Source of the DNA: Flavobacterium sp.
GTDB taxonomy: Bacteria; Bacteroidota; Bacteroidia; Flavobacteriales; Flavobacteriaceae
Direction of reading: 5' to 3'
Length of the DNA: 64,000 bases
Assembly: GCF_021151785.1 (NCBI RefSeq)
Contig: NZ_JAGKWP010000001.1
Span: 337 to 64,336, forward strand
The translations under genes and the position numbers were made by a program. The notes beneath the pieces were generated by a model. The model was given only the letters and a program-made list of their open reading frames with translations. It was not told the DNA's origin and searched no databases. Shown here piece after piece: positions 1 through 3,806 of this stretch; positions within the stretch are counted from its first letter, which is position 1, and each line of letters begins with the position of its first letter.

Positions 1-17
1 ATAATTAAATTATCTGT

Positions 18-674
18 TTGAAATATTTAAACATCATGCTTGAGAATCGTTTTATAAATGAATTATTATTAAAAATTGGAGCTAATCGTAATATAATAAA
101 AGTTCCTGTATTAATTGATTCCCAAGCAACTATAGACAATTGCTTTCCTAACGTTTTGGAAAAAATAAAAAGAGATGGAGGTTCAATAATTCACGGTTGG
201 ACAATTCATACTTTTCCTTATATATATGAAGCGGAAAGACATACTGTATGGAAATCAGAAAATAATGAATTAATTGACATAACTCCTAAAAAAATACCTT
301 ATAACCAAATCTTATTTGTTCCTGATAACGATAATACTTGGAACTACACAGGCGAATATATAGATAACATTAGAATAAATATAACTACGAATAGTGTTGT
401 TGACGATTACATTATTTTAAATGAAACAATATCCAAGTTATTCCAAACAGGAAAGCGTAATTTGAATGGTGAATTAATGGTTACTAAACAAATTAATAAT
501 GCTATCGAAATTTTGCAAAGATGGAAAAAAGAACATGAAAAATTTATGTATTCAAATGGAACAATTGATTCATTATGTTATTGTTGTAAAAAGAAACCAT
601 ATAAATTATGTATAGGTTTAAAATTAAGGGGTGAAATGCAATTTATTCTTGAAAATATTAGACAAAAAGCATAA
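18..674 (+). CDS. Cassette gene 0: hypothetical protein with C-terminal SEC-C-like Cys cluster (start may be ATG at 36)
   Basis: 218-aa ORF; C-terminal DSLCYCCKKKPYKLC resembles the SEC-C zinc motif; stop is followed by GCTAAC and the repeated module. Confidence 0.75.
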   Translation: MKYLNIMLENRFINELLLKIGANRNIIKVPVLIDSQATIDNCFPNVLEKIKRDGGSIIHGWTIHTFPYIYEAERHTVWKSENNELIDITPKKIPYNQILFVPDNDNTWNYTGEYIDNIRINITTNSVVDDYIILNETISKLFQTGKRNLNGELMVTKQINNAIEILQRWKKEHEKFMYSNGTIDSLCYCCKKKPYKLCIGLKLRGEMQFILENIRQKA

Positions 675-750
675 AATGCCAGCTGCTAACACAGGTAGCT
701 GTTGCACAACTATCATTTTTTAAAAACAAGCCACAAAAAGTATATATTTC

Positions 751-790
751 AACCTCTTTTAAAGCAATTTAAAAGAGGTTTATTTTTTAG
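751..790 (+). terminator. Intrinsic terminator inside module copy 1
   Basis: Perfect 13-bp stem AACCTCTTTTAAA-gcaa-TTTAAAAGAGGTT (751-780) followed by TATTTTTT. Confidence 0.8.
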
Positions 791-973
791 TTGTAATTCA
801 AATGTAAAAATTTAAATAGCTTACCATCGCGTTTTTGAAGGCTGAAAAGGCTTGTTTTATGATTGTTGCAGGCATTTGCTAAAAGACTCTTTGTGGCTTA
901 ATAGCCCCAACAACTCTAATTTATACACAAGTTAATACCAATAGCTCAGAAAACAAAAAAAGCCTCTTGATGA

Positions 974-1003
974 TTTGTAAGAATAAAAAAAATACTATAT
1001 TTG
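974..1003 (+). promoter_or_regulatory. Bacteroidota housekeeping-sigma promoter in module copy 1, pointing into the next cassette
   Basis: TTTG (974-977), 18 nt, TATATTTG (996-1003) matches the -33 TTTG / -7 TAnnTTTG consensus. Confidence 0.7.
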
Positions 1004-1008
1004 ATAAA

Positions 1009-1089
1009 CGCTACTTTATAGCGCATATACATCCAAAATTGGGTAGATTAGCGATATAATGTAGCGCATATAAACAAGTTGTATGTAAT
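1009..1089 (+). other. attI-like recombination site, copy 1
   Basis: TAGCGCATATA direct repeats at 1019 and 1062, a 1-nt-shorter copy at 1049, IR CGCTACTTTATA/TATAATGTAGCG; ends TAAACAA-GTT (GTT 1078-1080). Confidence 0.55.
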
Positions 1090-1130
1090 TGCACCGCAGA
1101 ACCAGAATAATTAACCTTAAAAAAAACAAA

Positions 1131-1766
1131 ATGTATCTTAAAAGTAAAAAAATGACAACTTTATTTAAAGAACAAAGACTTTCTGAATATCTGAACAATA
1201 TTGAAATAACTTTGAAAAATAAAATAGACAGATATAATGATTTCACTTTAATTAATCTCGATGTTGAAAAAGAAAGTGAAAAACTTATCAAAGAGTTACA
1301 ATTATTTGTTCCCAGATTAATTAAAGAGGATACAACAACTTCAATAAATAAGGAAAAAATTGATGGTCGTCAATTACCGTCAGGTACATATTTTACACCA
1401 GGAAAATTAATTGAAATTGAAATAGCTAATTATAACATTCCTACTTCGGGGAATAATGTTTTTTTTAAGTGTGCTCCCAATGGATTTAATGCAATGGAAA
1501 TAAATGTTGAATTAAATATTCACGATATGAATATTAAACTTACTAATTACTCAACGATAACAGGTAACGATGAAGCAATTGAAGGTTTGAAAAATCTATT
1601 GTTGAAATATATAGAGATAATTGAAAAATATCTTTTAACAATAAAAAATGAAGTTGACGAATTTATACCAATACTAAAAGCCAAACTAGTTAAGTATTTA
1701 ACTGAAAAAAAAGAAAAAGCTATTTTGAAAGACGAAACTAAAGATAAATTAAATCCGTTTAAATAA
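1131..1766 (+). CDS. Cassette gene 1: hypothetical protein (start ATG 1131 or 1152)
   Basis: Open frame 1089-1766, bracketed by GTTGTATGT (1078) and ACATACAAC (ends 1781). Confidence 0.75.
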   Translation: MYLKSKKMTTLFKEQRLSEYLNNIEITLKNKIDRYNDFTLINLDVEKESEKLIKELQLFVPRLIKEDTTTSINKEKIDGRQLPSGTYFTPGKLIEIEIANYNIPTSGNNVFFKCAPNGFNAMEINVELNIHDMNIKLTNYSTITGNDEAIEGLKNLLLKYIEIIEKYLLTIKNEVDEFIPILKAKLVKYLTEKKEKAILKDETKDKLNPFK

Positions 1767-1772
1767 GCAACT

Positions 1773-1910
1773 ACATACAACACTTGCTATAAGAGATTTG
1801 GGCATTTGGCTTAATTTAAAAATGGTCTTGTATTTGGGAAGTTTAGGCAAATCCGAAAATAAGGCTTAATTTAGTCCCAAACCTCTTGTAGCAAGGGAAC
1901 GTTACCAGCA
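1773..1910 (+). other. attC-like hairpin recombination site
   Basis: AAC (1779-1781), arm CTTGCTATAAGAGATTTGGG (1783-1802), arm CCCAAACCTCTTGTAGCAAG (1876-1895; 18/20 complementary), GTT (1901-1903). Confidence 0.8.
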
Positions 1911-1931
1911 ATTTTAAATCAAAAATCATCT

Positions 1932-2540
1932 ATGAAACTAAAAATCAGAATTTTATTCGCCTTCGTAATAATGACAAATTTTGTATTTGCTCAAAATGTT
2001 AAAATGACAAACAACTACGGAAGTGAAAATAAAGAAATTCAAGACTTAATAGATTTTGAAAATATTTATATTGAGCAACTAAATTTTGAAAGTGAAAATC
2101 TAAGAGGTAGATATTACCAAATAAATCTCGAAGAATATAAAAATGGAAAACAAATAAAAACTTATACTCTTTTTGACGGTTCAGAAACTGAATATTTTAA
2201 AATTGACTCTGACAAAGAATCACTTAAATTCTTTTTCAAATTGAGCGACGGAAAATTGAAAACATATATCAGAGGAAAAAAATTCGGAAGTAAAAAATCG
2301 TATTTCAAATTAAATAGCGATTCAGATAAATACGCACTTAAAGATTTTTTTGGAAGTAAAAAAGAATTGAATATTGACCTAAAGAAAAAAAATGCTGTAT
2401 TTGCGATAATAACACCGACAATTCACGAGGACGGTTCAGGTTCTTATTGTGAAGTTGCACAATCAGAAATAGCACCGGAAAAATTGGGCGAACACTTTAA
2501 AATTCCACACTATTTTTTAATCACAATAACATTCAAATAA
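1932..2540 (+). CDS. Cassette gene 2: exported hypothetical protein
   Basis: 202 aa; signal peptide ending FVFA-Q; bracketed by GTTACCAGCA (1901-1910) and its exact reverse complement TGCTGGTAAC (2547-2556). Confidence 0.85.
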   Translation: MKLKIRILFAFVIMTNFVFAQNVKMTNNYGSENKEIQDLIDFENIYIEQLNFESENLRGRYYQINLEEYKNGKQIKTYTLFDGSETEYFKIDSDKESLKFFFKLSDGKLKTYIRGKKFGSKKSYFKLNSDSDKYALKDFFGSKKELNIDLKKKNAVFAIITPTIHEDGSGSYCEVAQSEIAPEKLGEHFKIPHYFLITITFK

Positions 2541-2616
2541 AAAAACTGCTGGTAACAGTGGTAACTGTTGCACAACTATCATTTTTTAAAAATAAACTAT
2601 AAAAAGTATAAATTTC

Positions 2617-2656
2617 AACCTCTTTTAAAGTAATTTAAGAGAGGTTTATTTTTTAG
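2617..2656 (+). terminator. Intrinsic terminator inside module copy 2
   Basis: Same stem as 751-780 with one mismatch (2617-2646), then a T-rich tract. Confidence 0.75.
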
Positions 2657-2840
2657 TTGTGGTTTATAATTCTAAATTTTGAATGGCTTACCATCGCGTT
2701 TTTGAAGGCTGAAAAGCCTTGTTTTATGATTGTTGCAGGCATTTGCTAAAAGACTCTTTGTGGCTTAATAGCCCCAACAACTTTGATTTATACACAAGTT
2801 AATACCAATAGCTCAGAAAAACAAAAAGCCCATTTGATGA

Positions 2841-2870
2841 TTTGTAGGAATAAAAAAAATACTATATTTG
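2841..2870 (+). promoter_or_regulatory. Bacteroidota promoter in module copy 2
   Basis: TTTG (2841-2844), 18 nt, TATATTTG (2863-2870). Confidence 0.7.
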
Positions 2871-2875
2871 ATAAA

Positions 2876-2959
2876 CGCTACTTTATAGCGCATATCCACC
2901 CAAAATTGGGTAGATTAGCGATATAATGTAGCGCATATAAACAAGTCAGCTGTAATACT
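2876..2959 (+). other. attI-like recombination site, copy 2 (core GTC instead of GTT)
   Basis: Same repeats as 1009-1080; ends TAAACAA-GTC (2945-2947). Confidence 0.5.
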
Positions 2960-2976
2960 ACAAAAAACGACTTAAA

Positions 2977-3594
2977 ATGAAAACAAAACTTATAATAATA
3001 TCTTTTTTATTTTTAGCAAAACTGAGTGCACAAACTAAATTCAAAGTTGAACAGAAAGAAACTGAAACTTGGAGAAGTGTGTATTTACTTATTGATGAAA
3101 AAAATAATTTAATAAAAGTGTTAGATTCATCAAAATATTACATAACATTCAACTTTGATAATTATGGATATTTTGCAGTATTTGGAAAAAAAGGAAATCC
3201 TGGTTGGACTGCAATTGATGCAAAAGAAAATATATTATTTCAAGTCTACAATACAAGTATTGGTGAACCAAGTCCAGATTATTTAATTGAAAACAAAATT
3301 AGAATAATTGATGACGAAAATAAAATTGGATTTGCAAACGAAAAAGGTCAAATAGTTATAAAACCTCAATTTGAATTTGTGACTTCATTTCATAATGGAA
3401 AAGCAATAATAGGAGAAAAGTGTAAAAAAGTTCCTTGGAAAGAACACGCAAAAGAAGAAGATTGCCAACATTACTCTATTATTTGCGAAAATTTCGGATA
3501 TATAAATGAAAAAGGAGAAATTTTAAAACTTGGAAATTATTCGTTTGAAGAAATAAAGAAAGAAATTGATTGGAAAGCAGACGAAATAGAATAA
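2977..3594 (+). CDS. Cassette gene 3: exported WG-repeat protein
   Basis: Signal peptide ending LSA-Q; WG-type repeats KIGFANEKGQIVIKPQF and FGYINEKGEI; bracketed by GTCAGCTGTAATACT (2945-2959) and AGTACTACAGCTAAC (3597-3611), 13/15 complementary. Confidence 0.85.
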   Translation: MKTKLIIISFLFLAKLSAQTKFKVEQKETETWRSVYLLIDEKNNLIKVLDSSKYYITFNFDNYGYFAVFGKKGNPGWTAIDAKENILFQVYNTSIGEPSPDYLIENKIRIIDDENKIGFANEKGQIVIKPQFEFVTSFHNGKAIIGEKCKKVPWKEHAKEEDCQHYSIICENFGYINEKGEILKLGNYSFEEIKKEIDWKADEIE

Positions 3595-3605
3595 AAAGTA
3601 CTACA

Positions 3606-3715
3606 GCTAACAGCAGTAGCTGTTGCACAACCATCATATTTTAAAAACAAGCCACAAAAAGTATAAATTTCAACCTCTTTTAAAGCAATTTAAAAGAGGT
3701 TTGTTTTTTAGTTGT
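3606..3715 (+). repeat. Truncated module copy 3 (left end and terminator only), closing the array
   Basis: Matches 685-794, including the perfect hairpin at 3672-3701, then diverges. Confidence 0.9.
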
Positions 3716-3798
3716 TTAAGTAATTTGCTTCAAAGTGTTTTAACCAAAACAGTCTGTTTTTTCCCAAAATAAATGCGCTCAATAAGGACGTCTATGTT

Positions 3799-3806
3799 TA
3801 ATTTTG
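3799..3806 (+). promoter_or_regulatory. Candidate -7 promoter element for sdhCAB
   Basis: TAATTTTG fits TAnnTTTG, ~145 nt upstream of the sdhC ATG. Confidence 0.4.

Follow-up and report, generated by a model that had tools for sequence, protein, structure and literature searches.

A repeated terminator-promoter-attI module in a Flavobacterium cassette array is probably an IS1182-family end fused to a copy of a recombinase-adjacent platform

In Bacteroidetes, IntegronFinder 2.0 detects next to no classical integrons (PMC9024848). The rAID-1 arrays of Bacteroidales consist of a XerD-family tyrosine recombinase gene followed by co-oriented, short, low-GC genes with integron-like intergenic repeats, and the biogenesis of rAID arrays is stated as unknown (bioRxiv 10.1101/471110; PMC12247911). 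Recombinase-associated cassette arrays are abundant in Bacteroidota, and how they are built and expressed is likewise stated as unknown (PMC12247911). Here we describe an array at the left end of a 64,000-nucleotide stretch of Flavobacterium sp. DNA (assembly GCF_021151785.1, contig NZ_JAGKWP010000001.1, positions 337 to 64,336), referred to below as the window. The array (window positions 1-3716) contains four open reading frames (ORFs) in one orientation, encoding 202-218 amino acids with an ORF GC content of 25-27%, and its GC content is 27.4% versus 32.6% in the remaining window. Contigs encoding an identical SdhA carry differing cassettes upstream of sdhC, together with full and truncated copies of a repeated module; therefore the region is a strain-variable cassette array. 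We propose, with a probability of roughly 0.7, that the array is integron-like or rAID-like and that the module is the end of an IS1182-family insertion sequence (IS) fused to a copy of a recombinase-adjacent platform, amplified as an expression and insertion unit.

The two full copies of the module, A (695-1078) and B (2561-2945), are identical at 358 of 387 positions (92.5%) in a global alignment, a similarity far above chance level. The repeat search paired 807-1089 with 2674-2956 at 93%, and it also returned a three-copy family at 671-813, 2537-2679 and 3592-3734 (84% and 79%). The third copy, C (3616-3716), has only the 5' part of the module, its first ~100 nt, and lies at the end of the array just ahead of sdhC. 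Each full copy contains, in this order, a hairpin with a 13-bp stem and a T-run (hairpins at 751-780 and 2617-2646, DNA fold z = -5.8 and -3.8; terminators including the T-run at 751-790 and 2617-2656), a promoter motif TTTG-N18-TATATTTG (974-1003 and 2841-2870), three TAGCG(C)ATATA boxes (1019-1029, 1049-1058 and 1062-1072; 2886-2896, 2916-2925 and 2929-2939) and the end motif AAACAAGT (1072-1079 and 2939-2946). An earlier reading of this DNA from its letters alone (the sequence-only reading) had described a ~393-bp module repeated within the array with these elements in this order, and both the alignment and the motif positions bear it out. Measured from its start proper, the inverted repeat of the IS (695 in A, 2561 in B), the module is ~385 bp long; the 14 nt ahead of that start, made up of a cassette arm (R'') and a 4-nt spacer, belong to the upstream cassette and are unlike between the copies. 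A terminator scan found six terminator-like sites where 1.3 were expected. No Rfam family accounted for the module, the terminator giving only sub-threshold PyrG-leader matches, and for the whole window a tRNA-Ser was the sole match. Sister-strain arrays hold many further copies of the module, full and truncated, with up to three full copies per array.

The origin of the 3' half was traced by a metagenome scan with a 21-mer from the module's end, which matched seven contigs (loci from all scans carry L numbers below). At L128 and L133 a gene for a 345-amino-acid tyrosine recombinase, oriented like the cassettes, is followed by ~90 nt and then by TAGCGCATAT ... TATATGCGCTA ... TAGCGCATATAAACAAG. 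The same recombinase and attI are present at L128, L133 and L135, and these loci diverge exactly after AAACAAG; L135, with an identical protein, supplies a third cassette at that point. Judged by where the three diverge, cassettes have genuinely been inserted at the recombinase-adjacent attI. Over ~180 nt, module positions 248-410 are 66-68% identical to the L128 sequence (E 1e-15 to 1e-17 by alignment and blastn, with an exact 21-mer at the crossover); the match takes in the final ~64 nt of the recombinase gene, from the codons EIYTHV to the stop, as well as the promoter and attI. In module A the recombinase-gene fossil is at 918-980, corresponding to nt 975-1038 of the L128 gene with the TAA-equivalent at 978-980; the predicted promoter, a copy of the platform promoter Pc, has its -33 element TTTG at 974-977, an 18-nt spacer and the -7 box TATATTTG at 996-1003; and the attI copy (1019-1078) comprises TAGCGCATATA (1019-1029), TAGCGATATA (1049-1058) and TAGCGCATATA (1062-1072), with the putative crossover at 1078/1079. 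The L128 promoter, TTTG-N19-TACATTTG, overlaps the stop codon of the recombinase gene. From these comparisons the platform on the related contigs would consist of a Xer-like recombinase gene, a sigma-A promoter over its stop codon and an attI with three TAGCGCATATA-type boxes and the crossover AAACAAG/TT. The Flavobacterium -7 consensus TAnnTTTG lies at -12 to -5 (PMC9723704), and transcription is accordingly predicted to start near 1008 and 2875, the positions that the sequence-only reading had named; it is the positions that agree with the consensus, and transcription from them is a prediction. A second crossover at TTTATACACAAGTT inside the module was considered and rejected, that sequence being the EIYTHV codons of the recombinase. 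At L128 (1845-2849) a transposase gene of the IS110 family, the RNA-guided type, lies directly upstream of the recombinase gene (NF033542, 149 bits, cut-off 140).

The 5' half has a different origin. In a scan of one genome per species, the 16-mer GTAGCTGTTGCACAAC was found in at least 118 genome stretches, where ~280 chance matches are expected in that much DNA. The context AAC-N4 precedes it in 85 of 118 matches, and the rest, mostly from other phyla (~30), are chance-like. At the 85 loci, from Flavobacteriaceae, Weeksellaceae, Chitinophagaceae, Hymenobacteraceae, Cyclobacteriaceae, Bacteroidales and others, a small ORF is followed by ...AAC, exactly 4 nt and then GTAGCTGTTGCACAAC. At 12 loci GTAGCTGTTGCACAAC is one terminal inverted repeat of a full element, in which it is followed by 60-100 nt with a hairpin, by a ~520-amino-acid transposase encoded on the other strand, by an outward TAnnTTTG box and by a second repeat, GTTGTGCAACAnGCAC. 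The transposase (L035 and 11 other loci) scores 313 bits on the NCBIfam model NF033551 (IS1182; cut-off 270), and remnants occur in about 25 loci. Both repeats are present in 26 elements, which are either 1.65-1.8 kb long or are miniature inverted-repeat transposable elements (MITEs) of 118-660 bp; their 4-bp duplications are perfect in nine, all ANNN, and mismatched in the other 17, which suggests that repeat-mediated exchange is common. At L035, where the IS is full, and at L014 the element interrupts a palindromic site of the type seen at 1767-1903 of the window, lying between R'' and its stem. The IS ends of L035, L017, L044, L039 and L014 align with module positions 1-190 at 68-74% identity over 170-190 nt, with E values down to 1e-26. 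A terminator-like hairpin follows the repeat in 32 of 101 sites versus 4.6% of shuffles; these hairpins have 22 different sequences, and therefore it is the structure and not the sequence that is maintained.

By these alignments the first ~165-190 nt of the module are the end of an IS1182-family element and the source of the terminator; the terminator and "conserved spacer", which the sequence-only reading had counted among the platform parts, do not belong to the platform. In module A this segment runs from 695 to 860, with the repeat GTAGCTGTTGCACAAC at 695-710 and the T-run at 781-790, and it also holds the degenerate tail of the transposase-distal end. The same earlier reading had allowed that the module might turn out to be a known IS or MITE found mostly away from cassettes: an IS origin was indeed found, for the terminator end, and the IS concerned sits at cassette ends. 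Throughout the phylum (loci L010-L127) the IS1182 lineage and its MITEs stand 4 nt past a cassette's ...AAC; one of their ends bears a terminator and the opposite end an outward TAnnTTTG box. No earlier description turned up in literature searches covering a 13-mer, IS1182 together with attC, and integron-like elements of Bacteroidota. The module as a whole is very improbably a MITE, that is, a non-autonomous IS1182 derivative copied by a transposase, its outward promoter being incidental. True MITEs of the family, with both repeats and 4-bp duplications, are common at the same position; at L132, apparently from the window's own lineage, the same IS end belongs to a 285-bp MITE, and an L132 example has an outward GTATATTTG promoter abutting the second repeat. 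The copies in the window, however, have one inverted repeat each (695-710, 2561-2576 and 3616-3631), with neither a second repeat nor a duplication on the 3' side, and the 3' end of the module is the attI crossover, homologous to recombinase-adjacent sequence. No transposase is encoded in the window, in which transposase similarity is confined to the degenerate tail.

The module is bounded by cassettes whose ends have a recurrent form, GTT plus ~12 nt at the 5' end and the reverse complement plus AAC at the 3' end. In 50 distinct cassettes from many Bacteroidota families (loci L001-L123) the terminal 15 nt at the two ends are reverse complements of each other, with position 11 mismatched in 48 of 50 (the 5' end has A in place of the expected G in 44) and position 10 also unlike in 11. 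The mismatch gives A.C on one strand and a G.T wobble on the other and is possibly a mark of strand choice. All features of the array are on the plus strand. The ORF upstream of module A (18-674, GC 25.9%, no Pfam match) belongs to a cassette starting to the left of the window; its 3' arm R'' (...GCCAGCTGCTAAC, ending at 690) and the spacer ACAG (691-694, the position of the IS target or target-site duplication) occupy 676-694 in an AAC-N4 context. Cassette 1 (1078-1781) has the 5' arm GTTGTATGTAATTGC (1078-1092), an ORF ending at 1766 and the 3' arm GCAACTACATACAAC (1767-1781), and its arms are reverse complements with a single mismatch at position 11. Cassette 2 (1901-2560) has the 5' arm GTTACCAGCAATTTT (1901-1915), an ORF with a signal peptide (1932-2540), a 3' arm (2541-2556) ending in ...CTGCTGGTAAC and the spacer AGTG (2557-2560). 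Cassette 3 (2945-3615) has the 5' arm GTCAGCTGTAATACT (2945-2959), an ORF at 2977-3594, the 3' arm GTACTACAGCTAAC (3598-3611) and the spacer AGCA. Pfam found WG_beta_rep in the ORF of cassette 3 and nothing else in the four ORFs, and an exact-protein look-up of ORFs 1932-2540 and 36-674 gave no match; cassettes of the sister arrays encode TPM_phosphatase, Zeta_toxin, DUF4365, Fic/VbhA and Gp49/HTH proteins. The start of the TPM cassette, GTTGTGCAACAG, was rejected as a second IS repeat, since its pairing partner is the 3' arm of the TPM cassette itself.

Between cassettes 1 and 2 lies an intact attC-like site (1767-1903), an imperfect palindrome of 137 nt that folds into a long imperfect hairpin, has no IS, promoter or terminator, and shares 70-82% identity with sites of F. 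psychrophilum, F. calami and F. flavipigmentatum; cassettes of this array type normally carry a palindromic attC of ~130 nt. The module could be imagined as an unusually long attC of the upstream cassette, recombining as a folded single strand from R'' to R', and it is located exactly where an attC would be, between ...AAC and GTT.... It has no L''/L' self-complementarity, however; its interior consists of IS, recombinase fossil and attI, and the normal attC of this very array is the 137-nt hairpin. Contradicted by the homologies, a giant attC was rejected, and we regard it as scarcely credible.

We return to the module as a fusion of IS end and platform. By alignment it is a mosaic of IS end, a middle segment of ~55 nt, recombinase fossil, promoter and attI, and the identity between copies breaks off precisely at the two flanking cassette arms. 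Module B has the same structure, with its fossil at ~2785-2847 and its crossover at 2945/2946. The attI copies number 20 in total and precede 15 distinct cassettes. In every one of the 11 module-type copies the IS repeat lies 374-413 nt upstream and both the recombinase fossil and a TAnnTTTG box are present, and each directly precedes a complete cassette (five different cassettes, in six start variants). Shorter "orphan" platforms stand after trxA (L130) and after a sodA-like gene (L131) in other genomes. Since all copies share the IS repeat, the fossil and the layout, the fusion probably arose once. An IS1182 element would have inserted into a cassette attC, 4 nt after ...AAC, bringing a strong intrinsic terminator; a deletion would then have joined the IS interior to a truncated recombinase platform; and the fusion may have spread within and between arrays, with either attI x attI recombination or homologous recombination of modules (~90% identical) as the route.

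In such an array the hairpin would end the transcript of the upstream cassette, the promoter would restart transcription at ~1008 and ~2875 for the following one or two cassettes, and each internal attI could take in cassettes, given a recombinase in trans. Module A would drive cassettes 1 and 2, joined by the promoter-less attC, and module B cassette 3, ending at the terminator of copy C. The array thus conceived probably has several expression and entry points, not one. Two proposals of the sequence-only reading, an amplified expression and insertion platform and insulated mini-operons of one or two cassettes, are thereby largely retained. For the first, the 3' ~165 nt of the module are homologous to the recombinase-adjacent platform, the terminator third is an IS1182 end instead, and activity is predicted; for the second, the layout of terminator, promoter and cassette fits, and the transcripts are likewise predicted.

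The modules could instead be inert scars: duplication and homologous recombination would have dragged along an IS end together with a truncated platform that no longer works, with the cassettes expressed by other means and the internal attI copies unused. There is debris in the module, namely a one-ended IS remnant, a recombinase fossil and unexplained filler, and IS-end fragments in sister arrays are cut at several points and fused to other sequences. Three observations nevertheless make inert scars unlikely. Across diverged lineages (62-68% overall identity) the invariant columns gather in the -7 box, the boxes and the crossover. Module identity ends exactly at AAACAAG in 11 copies ahead of five different complete cassettes. 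In sister arrays a TAnnTTTG-bearing segment of some kind stands between nearly every IS-end terminator and the following ORF, a pattern that suggests selection to repair the polarity imposed by the IS terminator and so fits a restoration of expression.

Several results weigh against the fusion as a working unit and must be set beside these. No recombinase gene is present within the window, beyond which the left end of the array lies. At L005 the first module is truncated, its neighbour is an unrelated gene, and the 10 kb upstream of sdhA contain no recombinase; the internal attI copies may therefore lack a partner enzyme, and the lack of a visible recombinase beside the array also speaks for inert scars. 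The middle segment (module positions ~190-247, 861-917 in module A) has no significant similarity to the recombinase gene (score 12 versus 9.3 +/- 1.4 in shuffles), and an extension of the fossil to the left of position 248 was rejected as not significant. The bare promoter pattern has four matches in the window, two of them the modules, versus 4.5 expected, and is thus not enriched; the motif carries weight through its conservation and not through the frequency of the pattern. Among module copies the -33/-7 spacer is 14 to 18 nt long, owing to a poly-A tract, and promoter strength may therefore differ among them. The ~90% identity between copies may stem from recent spread or from gene conversion, and not from selection. 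None of the RNA runs searched contained the array, and on metatranscriptome contigs just the multi-copy repeats of IS end and attC were evidenced in RNA libraries, transcript ends not being resolvable.

Some further observations concern the sister arrays and the RNA libraries. The promoter spacer (978-995 and 2845-2862), with its poly-A tract of varying length, measures 18 nt in the window and at L001 and L003, as against 14 nt at L004 (~436-449), L005 (~1824-1837) and L007; judged from the sequences, this difference could tune or switch promoter strength. In wastewater metatranscriptome assemblies the word depth of contigs was 30-790 over the IS-end/terminator and attC repeats (601-800, 1801-2000, 2401-2600 and 3601-3800), ~18 over sdhCAB and ~0-5 over the promoter/attI segment, a pattern that multi-copy repeats together with DNA carry-over could explain. 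Copy C, an IS end alone with its terminator at 3672-3701, is cut after TTTTTTAGTTGT and forms the right border of the array; this border (3704-3716), with the IS end cut at that point and joined to the sdhC upstream region, is alike in L001, L003 and L004. Cassette 3 is the last cassette in sister strains, and in L004 a longer module and further cassettes come after it. A second type of attI occurs in the sister arrays (L004 1480-1604 and 2192-2362; L001 ~431-555 and ~1143-1314), with boxes like AGCGAAATA, TTTCGCCTATC and TGCGATACTAG, the end TTTCG(C/T)ATATAAACAAG and its own TATTTTTG box, and it may serve a second recombinase. A palindromic CCCCTAGGG(G)AA motif occurs four times at L005 (1490-1610), immediately to the left of the first, truncated module.

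The recombinase of the related contigs bears on the class of the system. Among solved structures the L128 protein is closest to XerA (5hxy, 1e-42), and a XerC-like protein, IntI4 (2a3v, in two stretches) and XerD are also among its best relatives. It scores 222 bits on the XerA/integron-integrase model (cut-off 220) and falls below the integron-integrase models TIGR02249 (201.9 bits in two stretches, cut-off 265) and PRK15417 (111.5 bits, cut-off 435). By these matches it is a Xer-like enzyme without the IntI insert. Its family comprises at least 7997 proteins at E <= 1e-40, with top matches of 65-83% identity, named XerD or site-specific integrase and found in Flavobacterium, Sphingobacteriales, Chitinophagales and Bacteroidia. 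The gene is directly upstream of the array and oriented like the cassettes at L128, L133, L135, L136 and L069, and not at L005, where the array opens with the truncated module; at L069 (Maribellus), L135 and L136 it is followed by a short array in ordinary chromosomal surroundings. The classical-integron frame of the sequence-only reading does not hold for a Xer-like, cassette-oriented recombinase scoring below the integron-integrase cut-offs, and on this sequence evidence we class the system as rAID-like, a likeness taken from the published definition (tyrosine recombinase, short genes in one orientation, conserved intergenic motifs), and not as a classical integron. We take the box TAGCGCATATA to resemble the XerC arm of E. 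coli dif (GGTGCGCATAA) and the cassette starts TTRnnnGYAAT to resemble its XerD arm (TTATGTTAAAT), with the 6-nt AACAAG between the arms (window 1019-1092). This presumed likeness suggests a dif-like core at the junction of attI and cassette.

A wider proposal, advanced tentatively and rated a little short of an even chance, is that Bacteroidota possess a phylum-wide integron analogue run by a Xer-like recombinase, that its attC sites are colonised by a dedicated IS1182 lineage, and that IS-platform fusions convert arrays with a single entry point into arrays with multiple promoters and multiple attI sites. The logic of the analogue would be legible in its G/TT crossover, its 15-nt arms and the fixed A/G asymmetry at position 11 marking the recombining strand. 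If true, this would explain in concrete terms the biogenesis of rAID arrays, which was still described as unknown in the literature of 2025. The locus and its relatives supply testable recombination sites (attI boxes, G/TT crossover, strand-asymmetric cassette arms), the internal terminator-promoter units are a way in which distal cassettes could escape polarity, and the module is a plausible case of an IS remnant and a truncated recombinase platform reused as array infrastructure. The cassette-end IS1182 lineage could also serve to find such arrays where integron finders see nothing.

In comparison with known systems, the rAID-1 arrays share most with this locus: both are chromosomal and strain-variable, with co-oriented, short, low-GC genes and repetitive intergenic sequence, and a XerD-family recombinase stands ahead of the genes in rAID-1 and on the related contigs here. 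They differ in host, rAID-1 being described for Bacteroidales and the present array lying in a Flavobacterium-type genome; perhaps in content, the immunity genes of rAID-1 not being evident by Pfam among the four ORFs of the array in the window; and in anatomy, attI, crossover, cassette arms and palindromic attC being defined here. The rAID-1 texts make no mention of internal platform copies or IS ends (bioRxiv 10.1101/471110; PMC12247911). The XerCD/dif system is related through the recombinase, whose closest solved relatives include XerA, XerC-like enzymes and XerD, but it resolves dimers, whereas cassettes would be captured here.

Class 1 attI1 of classical integrons ends in ...AAAACAAAG/TTRRRY. 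Like the present system, classical integrons have an attI beside the recombinase gene with insertion at G/TT (as found at L128, L133 and L135), an attI that ends in ...AAACAAG/TT with upstream repeats, a platform promoter, complementary RYYYAAC-like and GTTRRRY-like cassette ends, and an imperfect-palindrome attC (as at 1767-1903). They differ in the IntI insert, an additional domain that the recombinase here is without; in the integrase gene, divergent there and co-oriented with the cassettes here; in having one Pc and one attI, where the window has two full copies and a sister array as many as three; and in the arms, whose complementarity here reaches 15 nt with a fixed mismatch at position 11. 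IS1182-family elements with transposase, 16-bp terminal inverted repeats and 4-bp duplications stand in full at the position where the window has one end alone, and strict targeting of cassette recombination sites by this family was not found in the literature searched. Classical integrons have attC-targeting elements of their own, the IS1111-attC group and the group IIC-attC introns, which likewise take a fixed position inside cassette recombination sites. The lineage described here differs from both in being a DDE element of the IS1182 family, in its host phylum, in its insertion 4 nt after R'', and in having left a remnant that is built into a recurring intergenic module.

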